Origin: Eubacteriales bacterium
GTDB lineage: Bacteria > Bacillota > Clostridia > Oscillospirales > QAKW01
Assembly: GCA_045541535.1 (NCBI GenBank)
Contig: JAZQJG010000034.1
Coordinates: forward strand, 86,143-150,142
Direction: 5' to 3'
DNA: 64,000 nucleotides
This document shows, one piece after another, positions 1 through 64,000 of the stretch (position 1 is its first letter; each line of letters starts with the position of its first letter). The position numbers were made by a program, and so were the translations under genes. The notes beneath the pieces were generated by a model. The model was not told the DNA's origin, did not search any database, and saw only the letters and a program-made list of their open reading frames with translations.

Positions 1-1276
1 CTACGGTAGCACGGGACTGAAATTGGAAAAAACCTGTGCAGCCGCTCTTACCAAAATGATTGACGCTTGTTATGCCGCTGTCGGCGGAGAAAAGTTGTGG
101 ATGTATTCCGGCTATCGCACCTACCAGACGCAGTATAATAAGTATTACGGAAAAATCAATCAGTACGTATCGCAAGGTTATTCACAAAACAAGGCCAAAG
201 AACTAACCGACCGTTATTATGCCCCTCCCGGCGGCAGTGAACACCACACCGGTCTTGCGGCAGATATCTGTACGCCCTCCGTGGTGAACCGATACGGCCA
301 GCTCCATGAATCCTTTGGTACCACAGCACAAGGAAAATGGTTACGACAGAATGCACATAAATACGGCTTTATCCTGCGGTACGATCAAGGGAAAGAAAGT
401 ATTACCGGATATAATTACGAGCCTTGGCATTTTCGCTATCTCGGTAAGGAGCACGCTCAAAAAGTATACGCTTCGGGACTGACCTATGAAGAGTATTACA
501 ACAAACTACACACCACCGTCTCAAAACTGAAAAAAGCGCCAAATATCGCAATTAACGGGCAGAAAATTTCTTTTTCCGCGCCCTCCGGTACTGAAATTCG
601 ATATACAAACAACGCGCAACCCCCAACACTCACTTCTGCTAAATACAATAGCACTCTAAGCGGCAAAAATGTCACATATAAGGCCATCGCCTGTTACAAC
701 GGTTACACCTCCCCCATTGCTACTGTAACTGTTACTGCATACGGAGATGTATTTAAAGATATTTCCGTTAAAGATTGGTTTTATAGATCAGTCAGCAACG
801 CCGTGCACCAAAAACTGTTTTCCGGAATGGGTGACCACACCTTTGCCCCTAACGGTACGATGACCAGAGCCATGCTCGTACAGGTATTGGCCAACGTCAG
901 CGGTGTAGACCTTTCAAAATACAATGGCAAAACCAATTACAAAGACGTAAAAAAGAGCCGGTGGTATGCGCCTGCGATCCAATGGGCCAGCGAGCAAGGC
1001 TACGTCAGCGGTATGGGAAACAACCTGTTTGCACCGGAAGCGGCCGTTACCCGCGAGCAGGTATGTACTATGATCTATAACCATTCCGGCGACAATGATA
1101 ACAACCCACGTCCCAATTTTAAAGACTCCGGAATTATCTCCAAATGGGCATACAAAGGAGTAGCATATTGTGCCGCACACCAAATCATCTCAGGATATCC
1201 TGACGGTACTTTTCAACCGCAAAAGAAAGCCACCCGTGCGGAAGTCGCAAGAATCGCCCTCAGTTACGTAGCATAA
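1..1276 (+). CDS. VanY / peptidase M15B-type D-alanyl-D-alanine carboxypeptidase with three C-terminal SLH domains (5' end probably outside window)
   Basis: The frame is open back to nt 2, and the listed 'M' at 23 is a TTG. VanY-type zinc motifs SEHHTGLAADI and EPWHFRY are present. The C-terminal third has three SLH-like repeats (FKDISVKDWFY..., YKDVKKSRWYAPAIQWA..., FKDSGIISKWAYKGVAYCA...). Confidence 0.85.
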   Translation, partial: YGSTGLKLEKTCAAALTKMIDACYAAVGGEKLWMYSGYRTYQTQYNKYYGKINQYVSQGYSQNKAKELTDRYYAPPGGSEHHTGLAADICTPSVVNRYGQLHESFGTTAQGKWLRQNAHKYGFILRYDQGKESITGYNYEPWHFRYLGKEHAQKVYASGLTYEEYYNKLHTTVSKLKKAPNIAINGQKISFSAPSGTEIRYTNNAQPPTLTSAKYNSTLSGKNVTYKAIACYNGYTSPIATVTVTAYGDVFKDISVKDWFYRSVSNAVHQKLFSGMGDHTFAPNGTMTRAMLVQVLANVSGVDLSKYNGKTNYKDVKKSRWYAPAIQWASEQGYVSGMGNNLFAPEAAVTREQVCTMIYNHSGDNDNNPRPNFKDSGIISKWAYKGVAYCAAHQIISGYPDGTFQPQKKATRAEVARIALSYVA

Positions 1277-1306
1277 ATTAAAGCGTGCCAATGGCACGCT
1301 TTAATT
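1276..1306. terminator. Bidirectional intrinsic terminator between convergent genes
   Basis: Perfect 15-bp inverted repeat AATTAAAGCGTGCCA/TGGCACGCTTTAATT. It is AT-flanked and overlaps both stop codons. Confidence 0.7.
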
Positions 1307-1973
1307 ATTTTATTGTCCAATCAATGGGCGAAAGACCGTTTTTAATTAATATCTCGTTGGTTTTGGAAAAATGCTTACAGCCGAAAAAACCGTTATGCGC
1401 CGATAATGGACTGGGATGAGGCGCTTGCAACAAGATATGCTTCGGATTGGTTATAAGGGACGCTTTAGCCCTGGCATTGGCTCCCCAAAGCAAAAAGACC
1501 ACCGGCGTATCTTTTTCATTCACCGCACGAATCACACGGTCTGTAAAAATCTCCCAACCCTTCCCTTTGTGGCTGTTGGGCTGTCCTTCACGCACGGTCA
1601 GAACGGTGTTTAATAACAACACGCCTTGCTCAGCCCAAGAAGTGAGTTCCCCATGCTGTGGCGCCGGAATCCCGACGTCATCCATCAATTCTTTAAAAAT
1701 ATTCTTTAAGGACGGCGGAGCAGGGACTCCCTTTTTTACCGAAAAGCACATCCCGTGCGCTTGTCCGGGGCCGTGATATGGATCCTGCCCCAGCATTACC
1801 ACCTTAACGTCCCTGCAAGCAGTGGTACGCAAAGCATTAAAAATATCATACATGCCGGGATAAATCCGGTGCTTTTTATATTCTTCTTTTAAAAAAGCAC
1901 GAAGTTGTTTGTAATACGGCTGATCAAATTCTGCTCCGAGAATCTGATCCCAATCGTTTTGAAAAGAAACCAT
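1305..1973 (-). CDS. ung: Uracil-DNA glycosylase, family 1
   Basis: Motifs GQDPYHGPGQAHG and HPSPLSA; 222 aa. Confidence 0.95.
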   Translation of the reverse strand: MVSFQNDWDQILGAEFDQPYYKQLRAFLKEEYKKHRIYPGMYDIFNALRTTACRDVKVVMLGQDPYHGPGQAHGMCFSVKKGVPAPPSLKNIFKELMDDVGIPAPQHGELTSWAEQGVLLLNTVLTVREGQPNSHKGKGWEIFTDRVIRAVNEKDTPVVFLLWGANARAKASLITNPKHILLQAPHPSPLSAHNGFFGCKHFSKTNEILIKNGLSPIDWTIK

Positions 1974-1976
1974 ATA

Positions 1977-3179
1977 TCAAAAATATCCTTTAAAATTAAC
2001 CCTAAGATCACTTTTCGGAAAGAGATAAGCATACAGTTCCAAAAAGAAATCGTCCGTCATACCTGCAATAAAATCCACTACAATTTGATCAGGATCCTCC
2101 AAGCGATACGGCTCGGTGCGGTAAAAAGATCGCTCAATCCCATCAATGTGATGCGTAAAGATCACCGAACTCTCATCGCCATCTAAAAGTTCTTTGCGCA
2201 AACGCTGATAAATTTGTTCCATCATCGGCTCAATGGCGGTATCATAACTATCGTTTCCCACTTGATAAATCAACTGATAATTTGCTTTTTTAGCCGCGGA
2301 AAGAGCCTCAAAATATTCTTTATCCAGTCGAATGTATGGGTGGCCATAGCTGTTTTGTATGATATTGACCGTCAAATTATTGATGATCTCGGCATTTGTG
2401 GCACCGATAGGACCATTCGGAAAAGAACACCCTTCCGGGAGTTGCTTCATTTTCACAGCATCCTGACGATCTTTGCCAAGATACGCAATAATGTCACAAA
2501 TCCGTACCACACACCCCTCCAACGTAGAGGGTACCATCTTAAGATTGTTGGCTTTATCAAGATAACAGCTTTCCACTGCCGCATCCAGTTGAACAAAAGA
2601 CGTCATTTCCTTGGGGCTGTATTCCGACAATTCCATCTCCCCGTTATGCCCCAAGATGCCGCTGAGGGTTTGCAAAGTAAGATTATAAGGAATCAACCGA
2701 TCAAGCACCCGCACGCTGTGAACGTTATGTTGAAAACTCCGTCCGGTATATCCGTTGTACAAACGGTCCAGCATTCTTTCACCTGCGTGACCGAAAGGCG
2801 TGTGTCCGATATCGTGACCCAGAGCAATGGCCTCAATCAAATCCAGATTGAGATTCAGCACCTTGCCGATATTGCGGGCAATGCGGGATACCAACTGTAC
2901 GTGCTGAGCCCTACGGGTGATATCATCATTTTTGGAAAAAGAAAAAACCTGAGTTTTGTCGGCATAACGGTCAAAATATTCGCTATGCAAAATTTTTTCG
3001 CAATCACGTACAAAGGTTGGTCGCCACAGATTGGCCACATCTTTTTTCTCATTCCGACGCACAGCCAGCTCATCTTTAAAGCCAAACCTCGGTAAAGTCC
3101 CTTGTATGCGATCCTCCTCAATGCGCTGAATCAAGGCGGCATCCAATTGATCAAATTTCAACTTTCTATTATTTAACAT
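1977..3179 (-). CDS. HD-domain dGTP triphosphohydrolase-like protein
   Basis: HD motif LGHDIGHTPFGHAGE. The likely start is the ATG at 3179 (MLNNRKLKF), overlapping the radC stop. The longer ORF to 3251 lies inside radC. Confidence 0.85.
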   Translation of the reverse strand: MLNNRKLKFDQLDAALIQRIEEDRIQGTLPRFGFKDELAVRRNEKKDVANLWRPTFVRDCEKILHSEYFDRYADKTQVFSFSKNDDITRRAQHVQLVSRIARNIGKVLNLNLDLIEAIALGHDIGHTPFGHAGERMLDRLYNGYTGRSFQHNVHSVRVLDRLIPYNLTLQTLSGILGHNGEMELSEYSPKEMTSFVQLDAAVESCYLDKANNLKMVPSTLEGCVVRICDIIAYLGKDRQDAVKMKQLPEGCSFPNGPIGATNAEIINNLTVNIIQNSYGHPYIRLDKEYFEALSAAKKANYQLIYQVGNDSYDTAIEPMMEQIYQRLRKELLDGDESSVIFTHHIDGIERSFYRTEPYRLEDPDQIVVDFIAGMTDDFFLELYAYLFPKSDLRVNFKGYF

Positions 3180-3861
3180 GACGCAAAAGCCCCGTTGCCG
3201 CCATAGAAGTAGCCTGATCACCGCATACGACGATATGATCCACCAGCACAATGCCGCAAGCCATCAGTTTTTCACCCACAAATTGCGTTGTCATAATATC
3301 TTCCGAAGAAGGTTCGGGATGAGCGAAATGATTATGGGCCAACACAACCATAGCGGCTCTGAAACGCAAGGCCGCATCCATCAAGGAGCGAGTTTCAATC
3401 TTGAGAGCATCAATAGAGCCTTTACAAATCATTTCACAACTGATCAAACACCAATTCTTATCCAAAAATGCGGCATATAACTGCTCTTCCTTGGCACCAA
3501 CAAATTTTGGTATAAAAAACTCTTCTCTCGCAAAGGCGCGGGAAAGAGAAATCCGACTATGCCGTGCAGGATCATCCAGATAACGCTTGGCCAGCTGTGG
3601 CACAAGAGTCAATAACGATGCAGCGTGTTGGCCGATTCCGGGCACACGCATAAGTTCTCGACTGGTGGCATTGAAAACGCCGTTCAAAGAGCCAAATTCA
3701 CGAATCAATTGGTGTGCCAATGGATTTACATCTTTTTGAGGAATAGCAAAGGTAAGCAAATACTCCAAAACCTCATGGTCTTCAAAGCCATCCAGGCCCA
3801 CTCTTTCAAATTTGGATTTTAAACGGGAACGATGCCCTTGATGCATATGCGGTTCACTCAT
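3169..3861 (-). CDS. radC: RadC-family JAB/MPN-domain protein
   Basis: N-terminal HhH region (MRVPGIGQHAASLL) and the JAMM-like motif HNHFAHPEPSSEDI. Confidence 0.9.
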   Translation of the reverse strand: MSEPHMHQGHRSRLKSKFERVGLDGFEDHEVLEYLLTFAIPQKDVNPLAHQLIREFGSLNGVFNATSRELMRVPGIGQHAASLLTLVPQLAKRYLDDPARHSRISLSRAFAREEFFIPKFVGAKEEQLYAAFLDKNWCLISCEMICKGSIDALKIETRSLMDAALRFRAAMVVLAHNHFAHPEPSSEDIMTTQFVGEKLMACGIVLVDHIVVCGDQATSMAATGLLRHVK

Positions 3862-3988
3862 TTTTCAACGCCTCCTATTAGAAATATTATATATAAGTTG
3901 ATGAAGATTGTCAAATTTTCAAAAACCAATTGACGAGAAGCCCTATATTTGGGTATACTTATAGTCAGAAATCTCAAAGGGGCTCGTT

Positions 3989-4939
3989 ATGAAAGAATTT
4001 GTGATCACCAAAAACGACAGCGATCAGCGTTTGGATAAATTTATCAGCAAAATCACCACCAACCTCTCCGGACCGTTGTTATATAAATACTTACGAAAAA
4101 AAGCCATCAAGGTCAACGGAAAGAAAAAAGAAATTTCATATCGCCTGCAAGAAAACGACGTGGTCACTCTCTATATCAATGACGAGTTTTTTCCCGATAG
4201 TTCCCCACTATTTTTGAAACTCAAGGGCAACTATAATCTTGATATCTTATACGAAGATGAAAACGTCTTACTTGTAAACAAAGCGCCCGGCCTGTTAGTG
4301 CACGAGGACGACAAGGAGCAACTGCATACGCTAATCAATTACATCCTTGCGTATCTATACAATAAAAAGGAATATGATCCTGAAAGCGAAAATTCCTTCG
4401 TGCCCGCCCTTTGCAACCGCATCGACAAGAATACCGGCGGTATTGTGATCGCTGCTAAAAATGCAGAATCCGGTAGAGAAATGTACGACATTATCAAAAA
4501 TCGTCAAATTCAAAAGCTTTATCTGGCCTTGGCTCACGGAAGAATGCCAAAAAACAGCGACATCCTGACCGCATACCACGCGAAAGATGCAAAGAATAAC
4601 CAGGTCTACGTTTACAACACTCCCGCTCCCGAACGCAAAACCATCAAAACGGGATACCGAGTACTGAAAAGTAACGCCAATGTAAGCTTACTGGAAGTAG
4701 AACTATTCACAGGTCGCACCCATCAGATCCGTGCCCACCTTGCTCATATCGGTCATCCTCTGCTGGGAGATACCAAATATGGCACAAAAGCAAACAATGA
4801 TCGCCTTCCCTTCCGTTATCAAGCGCTATACGCTTACAAGCTTCGCTTTTTAATTCAAAACGAAAATTCTCCTTTATATTATTTAAATCAAAAATCTTTT
4901 GAAGTAAAAAACGTTTATTTCAAAGACTTTATAAAATAA
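3989..4939 (+). CDS. RluA-family 23S rRNA pseudouridine synthase (RluC/D-like) with N-terminal S4 domain
   Basis: Motifs NRIDKNTGGIV (catalytic Asp) and HQIRAHLAHIGHPLLGDTKYG. Confidence 0.9.
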   Translation: MKEFVITKNDSDQRLDKFISKITTNLSGPLLYKYLRKKAIKVNGKKKEISYRLQENDVVTLYINDEFFPDSSPLFLKLKGNYNLDILYEDENVLLVNKAPGLLVHEDDKEQLHTLINYILAYLYNKKEYDPESENSFVPALCNRIDKNTGGIVIAAKNAESGREMYDIIKNRQIQKLYLALAHGRMPKNSDILTAYHAKDAKNNQVYVYNTPAPERKTIKTGYRVLKSNANVSLLEVELFTGRTHQIRAHLAHIGHPLLGDTKYGTKANNDRLPFRYQALYAYKLRFLIQNENSPLYYLNQKSFEVKNVYFKDFIK

Positions 4940-4966
4940 AAAACAGAGCAAATGCTCTGTTTTTTA
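4938..4966. terminator. Bidirectional intrinsic terminator
   Basis: AAAAACAGAGC-AAAT-GCTCTGTTTTT lies between the convergent rlu and nfnB genes. Confidence 0.75.
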
Positions 4967-6352
4967 TTATTTTCGGATATATTCATCAATAGCATTCGCC
5001 GCATTTTTGCCGGCGCCCATGGCAAGAATTACCGTAGCCGCTCCGGTTACGGCATCACCACCGGCAAACACGCCTTTTCTACTGGTCTGACCGGTAACCT
5101 CATCTGCAATAATGCCGCCCCAGCGCTGGGTTTCAAGGCCTTCGGTGGTAGATTTGATCAACGGATTGGGCGAAGTTCCGATAGAAACAATCACGCAATC
5201 ACAATCAATCACAAACTCGGAACCGGGCACCTCCACAGGACGCCGTCTGCCGGAAGCATCCGGTTGTCCCAGCTCCATCCGAACGCATTCAATGCCGCAA
5301 ACATTCCCCTGTTCATCACCCAAAACACGTACAGGATTGTTGAGGAGCTTGAAAAAGATTTCCTCTTCTTTTGCGTGCTCCACTTCTTCTTTACGGGCAG
5401 GAAGCTCTACCTCAGAGCGACGGTATACGACGGAAACCTCCTGTGCCCCAAGACGTTTGGCACAACGTGCCGCATCCATCGCAACGTTTCCGCCGCCAAT
5501 CACAACTACTTTTTGGGCTTTTTGGATCGGCGTTGCGCTGTCACTGCGATATGCCTTCATCAGATTAACGCGAGTCAGAAATTCATTGGCAGAATATACG
5601 CCCTTCAGATTTTCACCGGGGATGCCGAGAAACTTGGGAAGGCCCGCACCGGAGCCAATGAAAACAGCCTCAAATCCCATATCCAGTAATTCATCAACGG
5701 AAAACAGACGACCGATCACCATATTGGTTTCAATCTTCACACCAAGTTCCTTCAATCGGTCAATTTCCTGTTGAACGATCTTTTTCGGCAAGCGAAATTC
5801 AGGAATGCCATAAACCAATACACCGCCGGCACAATGAAGCGCCTCAAACACCGTCACTTCATATCCTTTTTTAGCCAGATCACCGGCACAGGTCAAACCT
5901 GCGGGGCCCGAACCGACAACCGCCACTTTGTGTCCGTTACTCTTTGGCTTGACCACTTCACGTGCCGCAAGAGCATTATGTCGGTCAGCTACAAAGCGTT
6001 CCAATCTTCCAATGGCAACAGGCTCACCTTTGATACCACGAACACAGCGTTGTTCACACTGTGTTTCCTGAGGACATACCCGTCCACAGACCGCAGGCAA
6101 AGACGAGGACTGCTGAATAACTTGATACGCTTGCTCAAAATTTCCATCACAGATTTCTTTGATAAACGACGGAATATCAATAGAAACGGGACATCCCGCC
6201 ATACAAGGCTTATTTTTACACTGTAAGCAGCGGTGCGCTTCGTCAATTGCTTGTTCTTCCGTATAGCCCAACGCTACCTCATCAAAGTTTTTGTTTCGGA
6301 TCAGCGGATCCTGGGAGGGCATCGGTTGTTTGGTCAAAGACATATTTGCCAT
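4967..6352 (-). CDS. nfnB: GltD-like NADPH-dependent oxidoreductase, NfnB/SudA-type large subunit (Fe-S + FAD/NAD(P))
   Basis: Cys clusters CLQCKNKPCMAGCP and CGRVCPQETQCEQRC; dinucleotide fold VAVVGSGPAGLTCAGDL. It sits immediately downstream of a PyrK-like subunit. Confidence 0.8.
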   Translation of the reverse strand: MANMSLTKQPMPSQDPLIRNKNFDEVALGYTEEQAIDEAHRCLQCKNKPCMAGCPVSIDIPSFIKEICDGNFEQAYQVIQQSSSLPAVCGRVCPQETQCEQRCVRGIKGEPVAIGRLERFVADRHNALAAREVVKPKSNGHKVAVVGSGPAGLTCAGDLAKKGYEVTVFEALHCAGGVLVYGIPEFRLPKKIVQQEIDRLKELGVKIETNMVIGRLFSVDELLDMGFEAVFIGSGAGLPKFLGIPGENLKGVYSANEFLTRVNLMKAYRSDSATPIQKAQKVVVIGGGNVAMDAARCAKRLGAQEVSVVYRRSEVELPARKEEVEHAKEEEIFFKLLNNPVRVLGDEQGNVCGIECVRMELGQPDASGRRRPVEVPGSEFVIDCDCVIVSIGTSPNPLIKSTTEGLETQRWGGIIADEVTGQTSRKGVFAGGDAVTGAATVILAMGAGKNAANAIDEYIRK

Positions 6353-14204: not shown

Positions 14205-14388
14205 TAGAATGAAATATTTTCCTTGCGGAAAATATGAAATAATTCACTACAGTGAATTGTGAAATTTTGTGCTTACGCAGAAAGTGAAATAAAATTCGCC
14301 TATTTACATTTGCGAAGCAAATATTTCATAACGATGTTATTTCATATGCGACAGCATATTTCACTCGCCGAAAGGCGAATTTCATTGA
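14205..14388. repeat. Non-coding array of short perfect hairpins punctuated by TGAAAT (left half) / ATTTCA (right half)
   Basis: GAAAT starts at 14211, 14236, 14261 and 14286, an exact 25-nt period. ATTTC starts at 14323, 14339, 14358 and 14379. The palindromes between them are 14214-14235, 14241-14258, 14266-14283 (imperfect), 14308-14322, 14344-14359 and 14365-14378. Confidence 0.7.
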
Positions 14389-16930: not shown

Positions 16931-18694
16931 TTATACTCGGTCTTTGATTTCGGTGGTGATTTTTTCCAGGAAGGCCTCTAAAGACATAGTCTCCGTTTTA
17001 GCGGTGTCACGGTTACGGACGGCAACCGTTCCTTCCTCCACTTCCTTCTGGCCGATGACCAGCATATACGGTACACGGTCAACCATCTGCGCCTCTCGGA
17101 TCAGATAACCGATCTTCTCATTACGATCATCAAGCTCGCAACGGATACCGGCAGCACGAAGGGCTTCGTACACCTTTTTGCCGTATTCGGCGCTCTTTTC
17201 AGAAACCAACAATACTTTAACCTGAGTTGGAGCAAGCCATGCGGGGAACTTACCGGCAAAGTGTTCGGTGAGAACACCGATAAATCTCTCAATGGAGCCA
17301 AAGCATACTCTGTGGATCATAATAGGACGTTGCTTTTCGCCCTTTTCATCAATATACTCAAGTTCAAAATTGATGGGCATCTGGAAGTCAAGCTGAATGG
17401 TACCGCACTGCCAGGTTCTGCCGATGGAGTCCTCCAGATGGAAGTCAATCTTAGGACCGTAAAATGCACCGTCGCCCTCGTTGACGATATAATTGAGGCC
17501 CAATTTATCCAGCGCATCCTTCAGACCGTTGGTTGCGGCCTCCCAATCCTCGTCACTGCCCATACTGTCCTCCGGACGGGTGGAAAGCTCAACAAAATAT
17601 TTAAATCCGAACTTTTCATACACTTCGTTGATCATATGAACAACGTTCATAATCTCGTCGGTAATCTGCTCTTTACGCATAAAGATATGAGCATCGTCTT
17701 GGGTAAAGCAACGCACACGGAACAGACCGTGCAGAGCGCCCTTCAGTTCGTGACGATGAACCAGACCCAACTCGCCCACACGCATCGGAAGATCACGGTA
17801 GCTGTGCGGCTGATTGCGATATACAAGAACACCACCGGGGCAGTTCATAGGCTTTACGCAGAAAATGTCTTCGTCGATACTGGTGGAATACATGTTGTCT
17901 TTATAATGATCCCAATGTCCACTGGTTTCCCACAGATGACGATTCATAATCAAAGGAGTAGAAACCTCCAGATAATTCTCTCTGGTATGGATCTCTCTCC
18001 AATAATCAATCAAGGCATTCTTCAGCGCCATACCCTTGGGCAGGAAGAAAGGAAAACCGGGGGCTTCTTCATTCATCATAAACAAGCCCATTTCTTTGCC
18101 AATACGACGGTGATCACGCTTTTCTGCCTCTTCCAGCAGTTTCAGATATGCTTCCAGTTCCTCGTTGTTGCGGAAAGCAATACCCTTCACGCGGGTCAGC
18201 ATCTTATTATCCTTGTCATTTTTCCAGTAAGCGCCGCTTTGCGCCATGATTTTAAATGCCTTGAGCGCCTTGGTATAGCACAGATGAGGGCCGACACACA
18301 TATCAATATAGTCCCCCTGCTGGTAGAAGCTGATGGGGGCATCCTCCGCCAGATCACCAATATGCTCCACCTTATAGATCTCGCCACGGTCAGCCATCAA
18401 TTTGATGGCTTCGTCTCTGGGCAAAATATAGGGTTTGATGGGTAAGTTTTCTTTAACGATCTTACGCATCTCCTGTTCAATCGCCTGCAGATCCTCATCC
18501 GTAAGCTTATCATCTCCCAGGTCCACGTCATAATAAAAACCATTGTCCGTGGCAGGACCATAGGCGAAATGAGCGTGGGGATACAGACGCTGAATCGCCT
18601 GTGCCATAATATGAGCCGCCGAATGGCGAATCACGTGCAGTTCTTCTGCTTCAGGACACTGAACGACGCTGCCGTCATTGTGAATAACTTTCAT
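16931..18694 (-). CDS. thrS: Threonyl-tRNA synthetase (short form, N-terminal TGS domain essentially absent)
   Basis: Editing-domain motif IRHSAAHIMAQAI appears by residue 22. Class II core motifs are present (FRVRCFTQDDAHIF, GAFYGPKIDF), as is an anticodon-binding domain. A Thr T-box lies upstream. Confidence 0.95.
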   Translation of the reverse strand: MKVIHNDGSVVQCPEAEELHVIRHSAAHIMAQAIQRLYPHAHFAYGPATDNGFYYDVDLGDDKLTDEDLQAIEQEMRKIVKENLPIKPYILPRDEAIKLMADRGEIYKVEHIGDLAEDAPISFYQQGDYIDMCVGPHLCYTKALKAFKIMAQSGAYWKNDKDNKMLTRVKGIAFRNNEELEAYLKLLEEAEKRDHRRIGKEMGLFMMNEEAPGFPFFLPKGMALKNALIDYWREIHTRENYLEVSTPLIMNRHLWETSGHWDHYKDNMYSTSIDEDIFCVKPMNCPGGVLVYRNQPHSYRDLPMRVGELGLVHRHELKGALHGLFRVRCFTQDDAHIFMRKEQITDEIMNVVHMINEVYEKFGFKYFVELSTRPEDSMGSDEDWEAATNGLKDALDKLGLNYIVNEGDGAFYGPKIDFHLEDSIGRTWQCGTIQLDFQMPINFELEYIDEKGEKQRPIMIHRVCFGSIERFIGVLTEHFAGKFPAWLAPTQVKVLLVSEKSAEYGKKVYEALRAAGIRCELDDRNEKIGYLIREAQMVDRVPYMLVIGQKEVEEGTVAVRNRDTAKTETMSLEAFLEKITTEIKDRV

Positions 18695-18725: not shown

Positions 18726-18945
18726 AAAAACACCCCTGGCAACTCACGTTGCCAAGGGTGCGATTGCACGGTTCCACCTTGGGTTTCACTCTTACTTCTT
18801 TAACGCAGAAATACGTTATCGCTTACTGCAGTTTCGGCGATACAGCTCAGGAATGGTCTTCATCGGTTTGCTTTCGGAAGGCTTACAGCCAACGACCTCC
18901 CTCTCTGTAGAAAACGCACTCGATTACTCTTTCCGTCTTTGCTTT
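18726..18945 (-). promoter_or_regulatory. T-box leader, specifier ACC (Thr), with terminator
   Basis: On the minus strand the leader reads AGACGGAAAGAGTA...CAGAGAGG...GAAG-ACC-A-TTCCTGAGCT. The T-box core is AACCCAAGGTGGAACCGTG. The terminator is CACCCTTGGCAAC...GTTGCCAGGGGTG followed by TTTTT. The ACC specifier is at 18855-18857. Confidence 0.85.
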
Positions 18946-18951
18946 TATTTG

Positions 18952-18989: not shown

Positions 18990-19754
18990 TTAGTCAAGAC
19001 TGCGCAGGAATTTGATGCAACGGCCAACCTCTTCGGCGCCGGTGGGATCTAAGCCCTCGGATTCAACTACCATACGGACGTTGTTCTTAATTGCCCACTC
19101 GCGGAAAACAGTGACGGGCGCCTGACCCTCACCCAAGGCCTTCCCTTTGACACCGGTGTGAACGTCATCATAATTCTTATTTTCGGGGGCAGAGGGGAAA
19201 CCGTCCTTAAGGTGGATCACGGAAATACGGCCTTTGTTTGCTTCCAAAAATGCCAACGCATCAATGCCGGAATTGAAAGCCCAGAAGGTATCCACCTCAA
19301 TTTCAACGTTGGTACGATTCAAAATCTCGGTTTCAACAATCTGACCGTCACGGTTGGGCACCAGTTCTCTGGAATGATTGTGATAACCCAGACGAAGGCC
19401 ATTATCCTTCAACATTTTTTCAGCATAGTTCAAACGAGCGATCTGAAGATCCAAAGTAAAGGCATCGCCAAAACGCATACCGGGTACGATAATGGTATCG
19501 CAACCGATGGTTTTGTGATAAGCAATGGTCTTTTCAATTTTTTCAGGAGCAAGTTCGACAAGGTGAGTATGAGTACCGGAGCAAATCAAACCATACTCGT
19601 CCAGCCAAGACTTAACATCCTCAGCAGTGTTGCCGAAAAAACCAGCAAACTCAATGTATTTATAGCCAAGTTCTGCAACCTTTTTCAGTGCGCCACGCAG
19701 ATCCTCAGCAGCCATATCGCGAATGCTGAACATTTGTAATCCGTATTCAACCAT
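18990..19754 (-). CDS. Xylose-isomerase-like TIM-barrel protein (sugar phosphate isomerase/epimerase family)
   Basis: AP_endonuc_2-type pattern: YKYIEFAGFF..., GYHNHSRE, HLKD. The start is the ATG at 19754 after GGAGG; the listed start at 19769 is a TTG inside the RBS. Confidence 0.8.
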   Translation of the reverse strand: MVEYGLQMFSIRDMAAEDLRGALKKVAELGYKYIEFAGFFGNTAEDVKSWLDEYGLICSGTHTHLVELAPEKIEKTIAYHKTIGCDTIIVPGMRFGDAFTLDLQIARLNYAEKMLKDNGLRLGYHNHSRELVPNRDGQIVETEILNRTNVEIEVDTFWAFNSGIDALAFLEANKGRISVIHLKDGFPSAPENKNYDDVHTGVKGKALGEGQAPVTVFREWAIKNNVRMVVESEGLDPTGAEEVGRCIKFLRSLD

Positions 19755-19814
19755 AGTAGTTTCCTCCAAATTTTAGTATATTTTCATTATGCCACCAAAT
19801 TTCATTAAAGTCAA

Positions 19815-58021: not shown

Positions 58022-58840
58022 TTAAAATTGCCGTTTGATGCCGTAAACTTTACAAACGTTTTCACACAAAATCATTCGTTTTTCATCTGCCGTTAACGGT
58101 AGAGCGGCAAAACGATCCAATTCTGCGGCAGAGGACCACAACGGATAATCGGTACCGAACAGAACTCTGTCGGCCCCAAAAGCGTGAATCATTTGCACCA
58201 CGGAAGCTGCATCCCGATACATCATCGTAGACGAACAATCCACACATAAATTGGGGCAATCGACCAACTTTTCCGTTGCTTCCTCCCATACCGACCAACC
58301 GGCAAAGTGGGCACCCACCATTGTAAGGCCCGGAAATTCCCGCAAGACGCGCAAAACACGGTCGGGATTGGAATTATCATAACGATAGTCCCCCGTATGC
58401 ACCAGAAGGGGTAATTTTTCCTTCTGGCAAAGTTCATAGATCCGCATACAACGCTCGTCATCCATTTTAAAGTTCTGGATATCAGGGTGCAATTTCACCC
58501 CGTGAAGCCCCAACTCCACCAGATGATGCACATCTCCCCGCTGATCTTCGCCATCCGGATGCAGGGTACCCAAACCAATCAAACGGTCGGGGTGCGCGGA
58601 AACGGAAGCAGCAATAAATTCATTGATGCTTTTAACCTGATGCGGGGTGGTTGCAACCGACTGTACCACAAAACGGTCAATACCGGCGGCAATTCCTTCG
58701 GAAAGCATTGCCTCCACCGTACCGTCGGCGTAGGGCTCTTCTCCATAAAAATCGCCGGTGCTTTTGGCCGCACGGGCGGCAATCTTTTCGGGATAGATAT
58801 GGCAATGGGCATCAATTACCAAATACTGATTTTCAAGCAT
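58022..58840 (-). CDS. Amidohydrolase-2-family TIM-barrel metal-dependent hydrolase
   Basis: Motifs IDAHCHI, HGVKLHP and FGTDYP; 272 aa. It is the last gene of the Leu T-box operon. Confidence 0.8.
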   Translation of the reverse strand: MLENQYLVIDAHCHIYPEKIAARAAKSTGDFYGEEPYADGTVEAMLSEGIAAGIDRFVVQSVATTPHQVKSINEFIAASVSAHPDRLIGLGTLHPDGEDQRGDVHHLVELGLHGVKLHPDIQNFKMDDERCMRIYELCQKEKLPLLVHTGDYRYDNSNPDRVLRVLREFPGLTMVGAHFAGWSVWEEATEKLVDCPNLCVDCSSTMMYRDAASVVQMIHAFGADRVLFGTDYPLWSSAAELDRFAALPLTADEKRMILCENVCKVYGIKRQF

Positions 58841-58849
58841 TTGACTCCC

Positions 58850-61354
58850 CTATCCTTCCAGACCCAGCTTGCGGGCGGCATCCTCACGCATTTTATATTT
58901 CAAAATCTTGCCGGCCGCATTCATCGGGAAGGCGTCCACGAAATCAATATAACGGGGCACTTTATGACGAGCCATATTTTCATTGATGTATTGCTTCATC
59001 TCGTCCTCGGTCATGCTCTCCCCTTCTTTGAGAATAATACAAGCCATAATCTCCTCGCCGTACCGTTTGTCTGGCACACCGATAACTTGTACGTCACGTA
59101 CCTTGGGATGAGTATAAATAAACTCTTCGATTTCTTTAGGATAGATGTTTTCGCCGCCGCGGATGATCATATCCTTCAGACGGCCGGTAATGAGATAATT
59201 TCCCTCGGGCGTGCGGCAGGCAAGGTCGCCGGTGTGTAACCAACCGTCCTTATCAATGGCGGCCGCAGTAGCCTTGGGCATTTTGTAATAACCCTTCATA
59301 ATGTTATAGCCGCGCGCAACGAATTCACCGTTCACGCCGTCAGGGCAATCCTCGCCCGTCTCAGGATCAACGATCTTACATTCAACGTTAGCAAAGGCAC
59401 TGCCTACCGTTTCGGTGCGCACCTCCAGAGAATCATAATAACTACTCATAGTACAACCCGGAGAGGCCTCGGTCTGACCGTAAACTGACACGATTTCCCG
59501 CATATTCATAACGTCCGGCTGAGCGGCTTTTTTCATCAGATCGGCAGGACAGTTGGCACCCGCCATAATGCCGGTGCGAATATAGGAAAAGTCGGTCTTC
59601 TCAAAATCAGGATGCTGCATCATCGCAATAAACATAGTGGGCACACCGTTAAAACAGGTGATGTGCTCGTTATGAACGCAGGACAGCGCAGGCTTGGGTG
59701 AAAAGTAAGGAATGGGATACATCGTGGTGCCGTGAGTCATAGAAGCGGTCATAGAGAGAACCATACCGAAGCAATGGAACATGGGCACCTGAATCATCAT
59801 ACGGTCAGCCGTAGACAGATCCATATGATCACCGATATATTTACCGTTATTGACAACGTTATAATGCGTCAGCATAACGCCCTTGGGGAAGCCGGTGGTG
59901 CCGGAGGTGTACTGCATATTGCAGACATCATCCTTATCCACGGCAGCCGCCATACGATATACCTCTTCCACAGGCACCTGAGAAGAGCGAGAAACCGCCT
60001 CCTCCCAAGTCATGCATCCCTTTTGCTTGAAACCAACGGTGATAACGTTTCTGAGGAAGGGCAAACGACGGCTGTGCAAAGGTTTGCCGGCTTTGATCTC
60101 CTCCAGTTCGGGGCAGAGCTTGGCAATGATCTCACCATAATGATTGTCCTTACCGCCCTCGGTGAGAATAAGGGTATGAGTGTCGGACTGGCGGAGCAAA
60201 TATTCCACCTCCGCAATTTTATAGGCAGTGTTAACGGTGACCAAAACGGCGCCGATCTTAACCGTTGCCCAGAAGGCAATATACCACTGAGGTACGTTAG
60301 AGGCCCAGACTGCTACGTGATGACCGGCTCTGACGCCCATATCAATCAGCGCTCTGGCAAAGGTATCCACGTCGTCACGGAATTCGCTGTAGGTACGGGT
60401 ATAATCCAGCGTGGTATATTTAAATGCGTACTGATCGGGAAATTCCTCCACCATACGGTCCAGCACCTGGGAGAACGTGAGATCAATTAAAAGATCCTTT
60501 TTCCAGATAAATTTGCCGGTATGGGCACGGTTATAATACAGGGTCTTTTCATTTTTGGAGGTATCGTTGAACTGTTTCATAAAGTTGACGTATTGAGAAA
60601 AAATGATCTCCATATCGTCCAGTTCTTCAGACCACTTAGGATCCCAAACCAAAGAAATAAAGCCATCGTAGTTTACGGAACGCAACGCCAGCATCATTTC
60701 TGCAATAGGCAGTTCTCCCTCGCCGGCCAGGCAAAATTCAACGCCATTCTCCGTTTTGACACCGTCACAGAAAAGAACGTGTTTTAAATATGCGCCCAGA
60801 TTCTGAATAATCTCCTCTGAGGATTCTCCTGCCCCAAAATAAGCGGCAGACATATTCCAAAGTGCCGCCAGATTGTCACAGGCAAAGCGATTGAGCATCT
60901 CCCGCAGATAAGCGGTGTTGCAGAAAATACCGGAAGTTTCAAGCAGAAAGGTGATTCCCTTCTCCTCGGCTTCAGGAAGTACCTCGGCGATACAGGCGGC
61001 AATGCCGTCCAAAGAACTCTCGTCTCCTGACATCGCCTTGATACGGACGTTGGGAATATGAAGATTGGCAGCTACCGCCATACAACGACGGATTTCATCC
61101 AAGGTTGCCTCTTTGGCGCTTTCCTCTGCCAGATCGCACAACGTGTCAATACAAGGAATCTGCAGTTTTTTCTCGTACAGACGACGCAGAGTGGCCGCCG
61201 CGGCGTAATCGTGAAAGGCGCCGCCACGGTCGGTAAACAAGCGGTTGTTGATATTGTGCAGTTCAATACCGGAAAAGCCCAGTTCTACTGCAATATCGCA
61301 AAATTCTTCAAAGGTATTGTGATGCCACCCACGGGTGGAAAAAGAGAGTTTCAT
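58850..61354 (-). CDS. Fusion protein: N-terminal xylose-isomerase-like TIM barrel + C-terminal AMP-forming acyl-CoA synthetase/ligase
   Basis: Residues ~1-270 are AP_endonuc_2-like (GFSGIELHN..., FLLETSG, ISLVWDPKW). Residues ~290-834 are ANL-type (YTSGTTGFPKGVMLTH, TGDLACRTPEGNYLITGRLKDMIIRGGENIYP, PMNAAGKILK). Confidence 0.85.
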   Translation of the reverse strand: MKLSFSTRGWHHNTFEEFCDIAVELGFSGIELHNINNRLFTDRGGAFHDYAAAATLRRLYEKKLQIPCIDTLCDLAEESAKEATLDEIRRCMAVAANLHIPNVRIKAMSGDESSLDGIAACIAEVLPEAEEKGITFLLETSGIFCNTAYLREMLNRFACDNLAALWNMSAAYFGAGESSEEIIQNLGAYLKHVLFCDGVKTENGVEFCLAGEGELPIAEMMLALRSVNYDGFISLVWDPKWSEELDDMEIIFSQYVNFMKQFNDTSKNEKTLYYNRAHTGKFIWKKDLLIDLTFSQVLDRMVEEFPDQYAFKYTTLDYTRTYSEFRDDVDTFARALIDMGVRAGHHVAVWASNVPQWYIAFWATVKIGAVLVTVNTAYKIAEVEYLLRQSDTHTLILTEGGKDNHYGEIIAKLCPELEEIKAGKPLHSRRLPFLRNVITVGFKQKGCMTWEEAVSRSSQVPVEEVYRMAAAVDKDDVCNMQYTSGTTGFPKGVMLTHYNVVNNGKYIGDHMDLSTADRMMIQVPMFHCFGMVLSMTASMTHGTTMYPIPYFSPKPALSCVHNEHITCFNGVPTMFIAMMQHPDFEKTDFSYIRTGIMAGANCPADLMKKAAQPDVMNMREIVSVYGQTEASPGCTMSSYYDSLEVRTETVGSAFANVECKIVDPETGEDCPDGVNGEFVARGYNIMKGYYKMPKATAAAIDKDGWLHTGDLACRTPEGNYLITGRLKDMIIRGGENIYPKEIEEFIYTHPKVRDVQVIGVPDKRYGEEIMACIILKEGESMTEDEMKQYINENMARHKVPRYIDFVDAFPMNAAGKILKYKMREDAARKLGLEG

Positions 61355-61356
61355 GC

Positions 61357-62736
61357 TTATGCCTCCTCGTATACGATCTTGTTGACGGCATTAATATAGG
61401 CGCGGATGCTGGCGCCGATAATATCAGTGGAAATACCGTTACCGGAATACAGCTTGCCGCCGGAACGCAGTTTGACGATGGCCGAGCCCATTGCTTCTTT
61501 ACCCTCGGTAACCGATTGAATCTGGAAATCATCCAGTTCATAGTGATAACCGATGATCTGATCAATGGCCAAAAAAGCGGCGTCAATGGGGCCGTCGCCA
61601 AGGCAAACGCCCTGCATCGGCACGTCGTTTTTACTCAGCGTAATCTGTGCGCTGGAAGAAATAATATTTCCGTTATTGATGATGTAATTTACAAGTTTAT
61701 AGGTAGCGGGCACCTGCAATGCAACGCTGGCGACAATAGCCTCCAGTTCTTTGGCGCCAACATTTTTGTTGGCGGCCACATTGCGAAATTCTTCATATAC
61801 CTTGGCCTGATCTTCCTCGGAAAGATCGTAGCCCAGCTTTGCCACCGCCGTAATGACTGCCGCCTGATCGTCGCCGGCATCCAGCCGTATACCGCTTTCA
61901 TCTGCCATAGCGACCGTGACGGCAGATTTTTCATTTTTAACGTTTTGCGCAATCCAACGGATTTGTTTTACTACACGGTGGAGTTCAGTGACACGGATAC
62001 GAGAAGCAAAACCGTAAGTATTGCCGCAGTTTTTGATCATATCGGTAAAGACCTCCAGATCCACTCCGGTGCCCTCTACACAGGCCTTAACGTCCGCCAC
62101 ACCGGCACGAACCGCCAAAATCACAGATGCACAGGCCAGACCGTTTTTATCTTCACAAGCCACCGCTACGGGTAAGTCGGTATATTCCACGATCTCACGT
62201 GCAAATGCCGCAAAGTCATCGGGCATCATTTCAGCCGCCGTATCACATACCGCTACGCAAGAGGCGCCGGCAGCCACAGCTGTTTCAATGGCCTGACGCA
62301 AAAAATCGCCCTCTGCACGGGTGGCGTCCTGCGCACAGAATTCAACCTTACCGCATTTCTCTTTGGCGGCAGAAACGGCCGTTTTGATCCACTCAAGCAT
62401 TTTATCGGGTTTACGATGGCTGATATATTCCATCCCCACGGGAGACATGGGAAGTTCAATACGAATACAAGCGTTTTCCGCATTACTCAGGGCCAAAGCG
62501 GCATTTTCAATACTCTCCATATTGCTGCCCGCCGCAACGCTGAGCGTCGCTTTTTTCACAAAAGAAGAAACGGTGCGCACAAACAGGATATCGGTTTTTG
62601 CATTGACGATTTCAGGAAGCTCGATCACATCCACGTTTAGCTTTTCCAACTGACGGGCAATCTCGATCTTTTCTTTAAAGCCGAAGACGCCGTCCTTACG
62701 GCAAAGTGTTGTGTCGGCAATTTTGATTTGTTTCAT
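61357..62736 (-). CDS. 2-isopropylmalate-synthase-like protein with degenerate catalytic motifs and an intact LeuA-type C-terminal regulatory domain
   Basis: HMGL-like barrel in which DTTLRDGEQ is replaced by DTTLCRKDG and HxH by AVACEDKNG. The C-terminal GDGPIDAAFLAI...GISTDIIGASIRAYINAVNKI matches the LeuA dimer/regulatory domain. Confidence 0.8.
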   Translation of the reverse strand: MKQIKIADTTLCRKDGVFGFKEKIEIARQLEKLNVDVIELPEIVNAKTDILFVRTVSSFVKKATLSVAAGSNMESIENAALALSNAENACIRIELPMSPVGMEYISHRKPDKMLEWIKTAVSAAKEKCGKVEFCAQDATRAEGDFLRQAIETAVAAGASCVAVCDTAAEMMPDDFAAFAREIVEYTDLPVAVACEDKNGLACASVILAVRAGVADVKACVEGTGVDLEVFTDMIKNCGNTYGFASRIRVTELHRVVKQIRWIAQNVKNEKSAVTVAMADESGIRLDAGDDQAAVITAVAKLGYDLSEEDQAKVYEEFRNVAANKNVGAKELEAIVASVALQVPATYKLVNYIINNGNIISSSAQITLSKNDVPMQGVCLGDGPIDAAFLAIDQIIGYHYELDDFQIQSVTEGKEAMGSAIVKLRSGGKLYSGNGISTDIIGASIRAYINAVNKIVYEEA

Positions 62737-62762: not shown

Positions 62763-63052
62763 AAAAAATAAAAATCCCTGAGATCGGAAAAACACCGATC
62801 TCAGGGACGAAAAAACTCCGTGGTACCACCCTGTTTACCGCATAAAGCGATCACTCTTCCAGCTCTATCAAGCCGAATGCCGTGGTAACGGTGGCAAACC
62901 CGTGACCGCCTACAAGTAAAAGATTCAGCAGTCCGGCTCAGGAGTGAGACTTCTTTACTCGTTCACACTGCCTCACACCAACCGACAGCTCTCTGAAATG
63001 AATGGGAATAAAGAATAATTCCGTCATCGCCTTTAAAAGGTAGTTTTAAATT
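62763..63052 (-). promoter_or_regulatory. T-box leader, specifier CUC (Leu), with terminator
   Basis: On the minus strand the leader reads GGCGATGACGG...CAGAGAGCTGTCGGTTGGTGTGAGG...GAAGT-CTC-A-CTCCTGAGCC. The T-box core is AACAGGGTGGTACCACGG. The terminator is TCCCTGAGATCGG-7 nt-CCGATCTCAGGGA followed by TTTTTATTTTTT. The CTC specifier is at 62946-62948. Confidence 0.85.
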
Positions 63053-63059
63053 ATTATGG

Positions 63060-63088
63060 ATTATACCACAGCGTAGTTGCTTTGTCAA
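63060..63088 (-). promoter_or_regulatory. Consensus sigma-A promoter for the Leu T-box operon
   Basis: TTGACA-17 nt-TATAAT on the minus strand. Confidence 0.7.
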
Positions 63089-63098
63089 CAAAAATTTT

Positions 63099-64000
63099 TC
63101 AGTCCAGATGGTAAACCCAACCGAAGGCATCTTCCTTCTTGCCCCACTGGATACCGGTCAAGGTATCGTAGAGATGCTGAGTCACAGCGCCGATTTCACC
63201 ATTGTTGACGGTATACTTCTGATCCTTGTAACAAAGCTCGCCGATGGGAGAAATAACCGCAGCAGTGCCGCAACCCCAGGCTTCCTTCAGAGTGCCGTTT
63301 TCCATAGCCTCGGCCAGTTCGTCAATGCTCAGCAGTCTTTCACTGACTTTATAACCCTCCTTGCGCAGAACTTCCAAGCAGGACATTCTGGTAATACCGG
63401 GCAAAATGGAGCCGGAGAGCATGGGAGTAACGATCTCGTCACCGATGAGGAACATAACGTTCATAGCGCCAACCTCTTCGATGTACTTTCTTTCTACACC
63501 GTCCAGCCACAGAACCTGAGAATAGCCCTTCTGTGCGGCGCGCTCACCAGCACGGGTGGAAGCGGCATAGTTACCGCCACACTTGGCATATCCGGTACCG
63601 CCGCGAACAGCGCGAACGTCCTCGTCCTCAATCATAATCTTTACGGGATTGATACCCTCGGCATAGTAACTGCCAACGGGAGAAGCGATGATCACGAAGG
63701 TGGCGTTGTGCACGGTGTGCACGCCCAAAGATTCGTCGTTACCATACAGGAAGGGACGCAGATACAGCGAGGTACCCTCGGCAGAAGGAGTCCAATCCTG
63801 CTCACATTTTACAAACTCAGTCAGCGCTTCAAAAGCGATTTCCTCGGGAATTTCAGGTAGGCAGAGACGCTCGGCAGAGCGATTCATTCTACGGATGTTT
63901 TCCATAGGACGGAACATCTGTACCTTACCGTCCGCACGACGATAGGCCTTCAGGCCCTCAAAAATCTCAGCACCGTAATGAAGAACGGTGGAGGCAGGAT
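63099..64000 (-). CDS. ilvE: Branched-chain amino acid aminotransferase (5' end beyond window)
   Basis: The frame is open to the window edge (…HYGAEIFEGLKAYRRADGKVQMFRP…). Class IV aminotransferase motifs are present, including GGTGYAKCGGNYAAS. Confidence 0.92.
   Translation of the reverse strand, partial: PASTVLHYGAEIFEGLKAYRRADGKVQMFRPMENIRRMNRSAERLCLPEIPEEIAFEALTEFVKCEQDWTPSAEGTSLYLRPFLYGNDESLGVHTVHNATFVIIASPVGSYYAEGINPVKIMIEDEDVRAVRGGTGYAKCGGNYAASTRAGERAAQKGYSQVLWLDGVERKYIEEVGAMNVMFLIGDEIVTPMLSGSILPGITRMSCLEVLRKEGYKVSERLLSIDELAEAMENGTLKEAWGCGTAAVISPIGELCYKDQKYTVNNGEIGAVTQHLYDTLTGIQWGKKEDAFGWVYHLD

Follow-up and report, generated by a model that had tools for sequence, protein, structure and literature searches.

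Many fibre-degrading Clostridia of the rumen and gut need branched-chain volatile fatty acids, and classical labelling studies established that rumen anaerobes reductively carboxylate branched-chain fatty acids to branched-chain amino acids (BCAAs). To our knowledge no gene has been firmly assigned to the activation of branched-chain volatile fatty acids for amino-acid synthesis, and as far as a literature search found the activating enzyme of the rumen route is not tied to a gene family. Here we analyzed an 834-residue protein in which a xylose-isomerase-like TIM barrel is joined to an AMP-forming acyl-CoA ligase, encoded in a 64,000-nucleotide stretch (the window) of contig JAZQJG010000034.1 of an Eubacteriales bacterium. 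The cluster around this gene holds the set required by the rumen route, that is, ligases, a four-subunit 2-oxoacid:ferredoxin oxidoreductase (OFOR; here VOR) and a branched-chain aminotransferase (BCAT). With roughly even confidence, we read the protein as an isovalerate-CoA ligase feeding reductive carboxylation to leucine, its barrel being in this genome a conserved non-catalytic module.

Several described systems share parts of this arrangement. In the petrobactin (siderophore) pathway the 3,4-dihydroxybenzoate used by the adenylating enzyme AsbC is formed by AsbF, a 3-dehydroshikimate dehydratase (3dx5), the two being separate proteins. The window barrel belongs to the same superfamily as AsbF (TM 0.74), but here both folds share one polypeptide, the adenylating half is a fatty-acyl-type ligase, the gene lies in a leucine regulon and the barrel lacks three of the four metal ligands. 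The fold is also shared with the PF01261 ketose 3-epimerases and isomerases (D-tagatose/D-psicose 3-epimerase, UlaE, FrlC, IolO, hydroxypyruvate isomerase). An E-D-H-E set of divalent-metal ligands is the general pattern of this superfamily; it is kept in one class of fusions (Class II, defined below), whereas in the window three of the columns read N, L and V. With the PRK12583 synthetases the window ligase shares a full-length profile match, the core motifs, the hinge and the C-terminal lysine, and it differs from them by a 290-residue N-terminal barrel, control by a leucine T-box and, in Class I, to which the window belongs, pairing with a dead LeuA. Genuine leuA genes, for 2-isopropylmalate synthase, sit behind leucine T-boxes. 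The partner of the fusion shares the leucine T-box and the leucine-binding LeuA_dimer domain with LeuA, but it has lost all catalytic motifs and is paired with a ligase instead of LeuBCD. A literature search found no paper characterising the barrel-ligase architecture, in agreement with an earlier sequence-only reading of this DNA, which knew of no characterised pathway coupling the two folds in one polypeptide.

The fusion gene is composed as follows.

58850..61354, (-) strand: barrel-ligase fusion open reading frame (ORF), 834 aa, ATG start, zero internal stops or frameshifts
60545..61354, (-) strand: barrel domain, aa 1-270 (PF01261), xylose-isomerase-like TIM barrel with a degenerate metal site
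60470..60544, (-) strand: inter-domain linker, aa 271-295, TLYYNRAHTGKFIWKKDLLIDLTFS, conserved
58850..60469, (-) strand: ANL-superfamily AMP-forming acyl-CoA ligase, aa 296-834 plus the stop codon (PF00501 and PF13193)

Three Pfam domains exceeded their cut-offs: PF01261 with 70.8 bits (cut-off 31.1; E 1.9e-19) over aa 20-237, PF00501 with 302 bits (cut-off 29.9; E 5e-90) over aa 299-690, and PF13193 with 70 bits (cut-off 24.5) over aa 741-816. The uninterrupted 834-residue frame reported by the sequence-only reading was recovered without stop or frameshift, and these matches bear out its description of a xylose-isomerase-like barrel and a complete ANL enzyme in one polypeptide; its proposed check of the N-terminal region against TIM-barrel families gave the PF01261 match. 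The motifs that it had named were each found in the translation, and the ligase core comprises A3 (YTSGTTGFPKG), A5 (YGQTE), A7 (HTGD), the A8 hinge (GRLKDMIIRGGENIYP) and the A10 lysine (AAGKILK), all invariant in 30 homologs. The best NCBIfam match was PRK12583 (NF009233, 'fatty acid CoA ligase family'; E 8e-197), which aligned end to end (aa 289-831 with profile positions 15-555 of 558). Its score of 655 bits lies below the 832 bits that NCBI sets for membership, and PRK12583 is still the closest family. The best matches of the ligase were fatty-acyl, malonyl and feruloyl-CoA synthetases. Judged by motifs and profiles, nothing is missing from the AMP-forming acyl-CoA ligase in the C-terminal half.

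The junction (aa 270-295, nt ~60470-60545) was continuous, and its length and frame were identical across hundreds of independent assemblies. The linker was nearly invariant within the subclade of the window, and residues G280, W284, K286, I290, T293 and F294 were at least 90% conserved in Class I and Class II alike. An artefact in which sequencing or assembly error joined two neighbouring genes was rejected because the same fusion recurs over many independent assemblies: the unbroken architecture of 815-920 aa was found in thousands of independently assembled proteins, with a conserved linker, and also in complete genomes such as that of [Clostridium] cellulosi. We therefore assign practically no probability to an artefact.

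The sequence-only reading had considered the fusion unusual, a view that its distribution contradicts. A search seeded with the window barrel, in which candidate length was limited by the whole protein, matched 2781 proteins, and the best 120 listed all had fused domains. Most of these 120 were complete (829-843 aa, with PF01261, PF00501 and PF13193) and eight were shortened fragments; the source annotation of fused matches was 'AMP-binding protein' and nothing more. Class II and Class Ib barrels used as queries matched 2709 (E <= 1e-40) and 1431 proteins, respectively. A scan of one genome per species showed that 394 species genomes encode a relative, the loci coming from Acutalibacteraceae, Oscillospiraceae, Ruminococcus, Ca. 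Fimenecus and similar metagenome-assembled genomes (MAGs) of gut and rumen. Among 201 genomes drawn evenly from the order of the window, 121 had a barrel relative at E <= 1e-20; about 79, belonging to many families, had the fused form (open frames of 815-920 aa), and the rest of the 121 had free-standing barrels. Fused forms were present in about 20 of 401 genomes sampled from other orders and classes of the phylum. With about 79 of 201 order genomes and at least 394 species genomes carrying the architecture, the barrel-ligase fusion is among the commonest ligase architectures in the order. Cultured carriers include [Clostridium] cellulosi, Hydrogenispora ethanolica and Dehalobacter sp. DCM; MAGs were the only hosts of the Class I subclades found among the matches.

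The features that say most about function had escaped the sequence-only reading: a leucine T-box, a dead LeuA, VOR and BCAT as neighbours, and a genome with no isopropylmalate pathway. The first three are seen in the surroundings of the fusion gene.

63060..63088, (-) strand: sigma-70-type promoter-like site, TTGACA-17-TATAAT with extended TG (12/12 consensus matches; consensus match only)
62800..63036, (-) strand: T-box leader with specifier CUC (Leu), RF00230, 118.3 bits against a gathering score of 93
62774-62808: T-box terminator hairpin, 14 pairs followed by a T-run
61357..62736, (-) strand: LeuA-like pseudoenzyme, 459 aa, HMGL-like barrel plus LeuA_dimer regulatory domain
58022..58840, (-) strand: Amidohydro_2 (PF04909) protein, 272 aa, third operon gene (E 1.7e-36)
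63099..64000, (-) strand: class IV (branched-chain) aminotransferase (PF01063), running past the window end

The promoter-like site lies directly upstream of the T-box, whose specifier loop (GAAGuCUCA) reads CUC, a leucine codon. The fusion is translationally coupled to the LeuA-like gene, whose stop codon lies 2 nt ahead of the fusion ATG and whose 3' end contains a GAGGAGG ribosome-binding site; the Amidohydro_2 gene begins 9 nt past the fusion stop and has its own ribosome-binding site (GGGGAG). This arrangement was followed in 80 related loci: the LeuA-like gene was found about 1380 nt upstream of the fusion in all 75 loci with enough flank, the T-box was kept in 57 of 67 (specifier CUC, or CUG in 3), and most loci had Amidohydro_2 downstream and VOR-BCAT upstream. 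In the contig of the window (C34) the 354-aa BCAT is followed, beyond the window, by the genes for VOR gamma, beta and alpha (178, 252 and 343+ aa). A second contig (C49) overlaps the start of VOR alpha, and the gene cluster apparently continues onto it.

Contig C49 (L154), 6006-6253, (-) strand: Ile (AUC) T-box
Contig C49 (L154), 3689-5953, (-) strand: helix-turn-helix (HTH, XRE)-cupin-ANL ligase, 754 aa
Contig C49 (L154), 1038-3326, (-) strand: HTH(XRE)-cupin-ANL ligase, 762 aa

Read 5' to 3', C49 carries the isoleucine T-box, the two tandem HTH-cupin-ANL ligases, a 223-aa P-loop protein and then VOR, and in related loci the order Ile T-box, HTH-cupin-ANL, P-loop and VOR was seen contiguously. 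In the large Class I subclade (Class Ib) a protein of the HTH-cupin-ANL type follows the barrel-ligase gene behind an AUC T-box.

The LeuA-like partner scored below every NCBIfam cut-off and retained the LeuA_dimer domain (E 1.4e-28). Relative to the canonical LeuA of a related organism, DTTLRDGDQ was changed to DTTLCRKDG and HCHND to ACEDK, GERAGN was missing, and so was the canonical HESGIH segment, as judged from the two sequences and not from a displayed alignment. The catalytic motifs were lost in the partner of all 40 Class I loci examined. To judge by these residues, the partner is a catalytically dead LeuA paralog. A tblastn search of the 97%-complete genome with the LeuA-like protein brought up no further LeuA homolog, and the sole other HMGL-like match was an oxaloacetate-decarboxylase-like protein. 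The genome has one Iso_dh gene and one aconitase-family gene, together on contig C73 beside a GntR regulator. They were considered as LeuB and LeuCD and rejected, since by eye, with no family scan, they resemble isocitrate dehydrogenase and an aconitase of ~640 aa. The aconitase-family gene (C73, 1429-3368, (-) strand) is split into overlapping frames of 475 and 261 aa, by a frameshift or an assembly error. Searches for the IlvC and IlvD families gave no match in this genome and were positive in 14/14 control genomes. The organism is thus without an acetohydroxyacid or isopropylmalate pathway, and has BCAT, VOR and three ligases under isoleucine and leucine T-boxes.

As a rule, a T-box controls genes whose products help to recharge its cognate tRNA. 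Membership of the leucine T-box regulon therefore indicates that the fusion gene should raise the leucine pool. Because of the leucine T-box, the adjacency of VOR and BCAT and the occurrence of VOR-beta in nearly all fusion genomes, the ligase half is read as an isovalerate-CoA ligase, an assignment to which we give slightly better than an even chance. Under this proposal uncharged tRNA-Leu is predicted to switch on transcription of the T-box operon, the ligase would activate exogenous isovalerate to isovaleryl-CoA, the adjacent four-subunit VOR would reductively carboxylate isovaleryl-CoA to 4-methyl-2-oxopentanoate, and the adjacent BCAT would convert the latter to leucine. The route would stand in for the isopropylmalate pathway missing from the genome, and the HTH-cupin-ANL ligases behind the isoleucine T-box may by the same reasoning serve 2-methylbutyrate and isobutyrate. 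The screen of the ligase with short and branched-chain acids suggested by the sequence-only reading fits this genomic context. In C. thermocellum, genetic evidence indicates that the four-subunit OFOR Pfor4 interconverts branched 2-oxoacids and acyl-CoAs (PMC13011478). Compared with the rumen route and with VOR/Pfor4, direction and substrates are what we infer for the window cluster.

The proposal was examined further by comparing 60 fused loci across the order, which fall into Class I (40 loci plus the window's, counted together as 41 where the window is included) and Class II (20 loci). In Class I the LeuA-like gene is always upstream and always dead, and Amidohydro_2, VOR and BCAT are present in many loci; in Class Ib the LeuA-like gene is preceded by a T-box with specifier CUC or CUG. 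Class II genes are monocistronic behind a leucine T-box with no LeuA-like gene upstream; in at least 8 of 15 loci a CUC T-box immediately precedes the fusion gene, and no conserved neighbours were seen in the 20 loci. A leuB gene (TIGR00169 over cut-off) was present in 2/41 Class I genomes (5%), in 15/20 Class II genomes (75%) and in 89/122 genomes with no fusion; the difference between Class I and no-fusion genomes gave a Fisher p of 2e-15, with phylogenetic non-independence ignored. A VOR-beta ortholog was found in 40/41 Class I and 20/20 Class II genomes (98-100%), against 65/122 no-fusion genomes (53%).

These results also bear on an alternative in which the branched acyl-CoA formed by the ligase, isovaleryl-CoA or another, goes chiefly into priming the synthesis of iso-branched membrane fatty acids, the leucine T-box sensing primer shortage. 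In C. thermocellum, fatty acid synthesis draws branched acyl-CoA primers from the VOR-type Pfor4 (PMC13011478), and the acyl-CoA product would be identical under both readings. However, a BCAT lies in the same cluster, T-boxes normally serve the charging of their cognate tRNA, and Class I is tied to loss of leuB in addition to the lack of IlvC and IlvD in the window genome, which points to amino-acid supply. Leucine and lipid roles do not exclude each other; as the main role, primer synthesis seems to us unlikely.

The barrel half of the isovalerate-CoA ligase candidate showed a different pattern of conservation from the ligase. The ligase domain was 70-96% identical over all 60 fused loci; compared with the window, it was 70-76% identical in both Class II and the distant subclade of Class I, where the barrel was only 28-38% identical. 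Of the metal-ligand columns, assigned by HMMER alignments to MJ1311, by alignment to AsbF and by the general superfamily pattern, the window barrel kept E139 and had N167, L194 and V236 in place of D, H and E. Class II fusions, free-standing relatives, AsbF and MJ1311 all have E-D-H-E in these columns, a four-ligand metal site that the window barrel does not carry. H192 was rejected as a ligand column, being conserved in the subclade of the window yet Tyr in most Class II proteins. An AlphaFold2 model built with 30 homologs had pLDDT values of 80-94 over most of the barrel; those of the ligase were 20-50, with a shallow alignment. Foldseek matched the barrel model to 3tva, AsbF (3dx5), D-tagatose 3-epimerases, UlaE and SCO6571 with target-normalised TM values of 0.64-0.78 (listed matches 3tva, 3dx5, 4pgl, 3cqj and 2zds), and the model thereby confirmed a (beta/alpha)8 TIM-barrel fold. 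Between Class I pairs the barrel had a dN/dS of 0.03-0.12, roughly threefold that of the ligase, with saturation of several dS values; by this measure the window barrel is under strong purifying selection. Since three of four metal ligands are lost yet purifying selection is strong, the window barrel is read as a structural or regulatory module, which is probably non-catalytic. The suggestion of the sequence-only reading that the fusion couples two enzymes stands in so far as there is one genuine polypeptide, but N167, L194 and V236 indicate that the window barrel is probably no second enzyme.

Strong purifying selection on the barrel also speaks for a reading in which the window protein is truly bifunctional, with a barrel that remains catalytic through a remodelled, possibly metal-independent site and either makes the acid for the ligase, as AsbF does for AsbC, or acts on the acyl-CoA product. 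Both classes share residues E31, T140, W166, E177, D197 and W237 as well as the G211/G213/P216 loop. No ligand is lost from Class II barrels, and their profile finds AsbF as closest solved relative (E 2.8e-12) and Art22 as second-best match in the PDB. Their NCBIfam matches, to ketose epimerases and to hydroxypyruvate and oxo-tetronate isomerases, had E values of 1e-9 to 1e-13 and lay far below the cut-offs. Against bifunctionality, the ligand columns vary among Class I sublineages (D/N, H/L/Q/R, E/V/A and E/K/S), leaving no common catalytic constellation, and about 65 barrel positions that are at least 90% conserved in Class II are relaxed in Class I, with just 6 newly fixed. The relaxed positions include D167, H169, H170, H194, K196 and E236 (window numbering). 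Coupling of the AsbF/AsbC type was not found here: the ligands are lost and, by its best matches, the ligase is not of the aryl-acid type. We consider a bifunctional window protein improbable.

The non-catalytic barrel of the preferred reading may have another use, as a docking surface for the dead LeuA, whose leucine-binding domain could then exert feedback control on the ligase. A contact between the barrel and a leucine-sensing dead LeuA is a tentative proposal, which we regard as attractive but less likely than not.

In Class II, on the other hand, the barrel motifs GIExRG, LLVETNG, ALWDxHH, YxHxKDS, MGEGD and SLEWxK are invariant, and the ligand columns contain the invariant E/D/H/E plus HH and KD. 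This is one of several points that weigh against the isovalerate proposal, since Class II keeps an intact barrel site behind the same leucine T-box and the isovalerate route needs no barrel step; this route thus leaves part of the family chemistry unaccounted for, and something other than plain isovalerate may be the substrate. The Amidohydro_2 partner also has no role in the simple route. Moreover, the acid substrate is deduced from regulation and neighbours alone, the carboxylating direction of VOR is assumed, and the ligase falls under the cut-off of PRK12583, itself only generically named. The poor AlphaFold2 model of the ligase makes the inter-domain interface unreadable, the Fisher tests ignore kinship, and the calls of leuB absence come from draft MAGs. 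Which acid is activated, which way VOR runs, that barrel catalysis is lost and that barrel and LeuA make contact are points that we infer.

The same observations favour an alternative in which the ligase activates another leucine-related acid, such as 2-hydroxy- or 2-oxo-isocaproate, 3-methylcrotonate or a branched acid shared with the HTH-cupin-ANL paralogs. An intact Class II barrel implies an extra step on a carbonyl-bearing substrate, Amidohydro_2 is superfluous to the simple route, and substrate specificity is not readable from sequence. However, reductive carboxylation of isovaleryl-CoA is the one way from an acyl-CoA to leucine that we know to be established, and VOR occurs in 98-100% of the classified fusion genomes. 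Another leucine-related acid has, in our view, a small but appreciable chance of being the substrate, and isovalerate remains the acid that we prefer.

The history of the family was examined in a maximum-likelihood tree of the ligase domain. Class I, including the window, formed one clade with 100/100 support; Class II was basal and paraphyletic, and two distant fusions with intact barrels fell outside both classes. The rooting is tentative, the outgroup branches being long. The barrel motifs of Class I differ by subclade, being LETSG, WNMSA, HVLFCD and SLVW in that of the window, WN(V/I)R, YVRLGD and AAWN in the large subclade, and LLKTSG in a third. The simplest reading of fusion evolution has three steps: an ancestral fusion with a working barrel would have recruited a dead LeuA once, after which barrel catalysis would have been lost repeatedly, the domain still being useful. 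Since the ligase tree (loci L094-L153) departs from family labels, with three families (f5, f8 and f17) in both classes and Class I subclades mixing families, it suggests that the module of LeuA-like gene and fusion was transferred laterally within the order.

The sequence-only reading had also pointed to a free-standing paralog of the barrel at 18990-19754. The ORF at 18990..19769, (-) strand, does match PF01261 (E 3.8e-16), but BLASTP against the fused barrel gave E 0.54 and hhalign a probability of 1.4%; on these comparisons the two share a superfamily only, and the claim of paralogy was not sustained. Directly downstream of this ORF lies a T-box leader (18751-18948, (-) strand, 103.9 bits), upstream of a threonyl-tRNA synthetase gene (16931-18694). 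Elsewhere in the window a match to the Gut-1 small RNA (14318-14387, (-) strand, 54.5 bits against a gathering score of 50) adjoins a tRNA gene. The free-standing relatives of the fused barrel have 265-290 aa and 27-32% identity to it. In a Rosetta-stone test their neighbours were peptidase M3 and a glycosyltransferase, with no ligase or LeuA among them. Two divergent fusions (P0194 and P0227) are located at contig starts.

Further variation was seen around the fusion loci. Amidohydro_2 is a movable, recurrent partner: some Class Ib loci have it ahead of the LeuA-like gene (L138, L144 and L153 compared), and other loci, for example in Ca. Fimenecus (L055, L062 and L064), lack it. Near one Class Ib locus a further T-box (L147, 1054-1298, (+) strand) has what may be a UUC (Phe) specifier, read by eye. 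Homoserine O-acyltransferase (PF04204) and a pyridoxal-phosphate enzyme of Cys/Met metabolism adjoin some fusion loci (L002 and L003, downstream of the operon, and L090), and at L002 a dehydrogenase of the Glu/Leu type (ELFV) lies between BCAT and the T-box.

Taken at its widest, and held by us with clearly less than even confidence, the proposal is that the fusion and the dead LeuA form a complex with two pseudoenzyme barrels in which leucine, bound by the LeuA relic, would gate isovalerate activation as the committed step of reductive carboxylation. Across a large group of gut and rumen Clostridia, most of them uncultured, this route would have displaced the isopropylmalate pathway; the ligases behind isoleucine T-boxes would extend the same logic to all BCAAs in the genome of the window, and the ancestral Class II barrel would have been catalytic in leucine salvage. 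For protein evolution, the family offers a case in which a catalytic barrel appears to decay along several independent paths once a dead paralog of the former first enzyme of the pathway has been recruited beside it. The intact Class II barrel, carried by cultured cellulolytic Clostridia, is a candidate enzyme without an assigned reaction. The near-absence of leuB from Class I genomes (2/41 against 89/122) makes this class a marker that may serve to predict dependence on isovalerate for leucine, or for all BCAAs, in uncultured gut bacteria. The family is one of uncharacterised, very widespread, leucine-regulated acyl-CoA ligases with an accessory barrel that is degenerate in the genome of the window, and it constitutes a concrete candidate for isovalerate activation, with the leucine T-box as a built-in specificity label.

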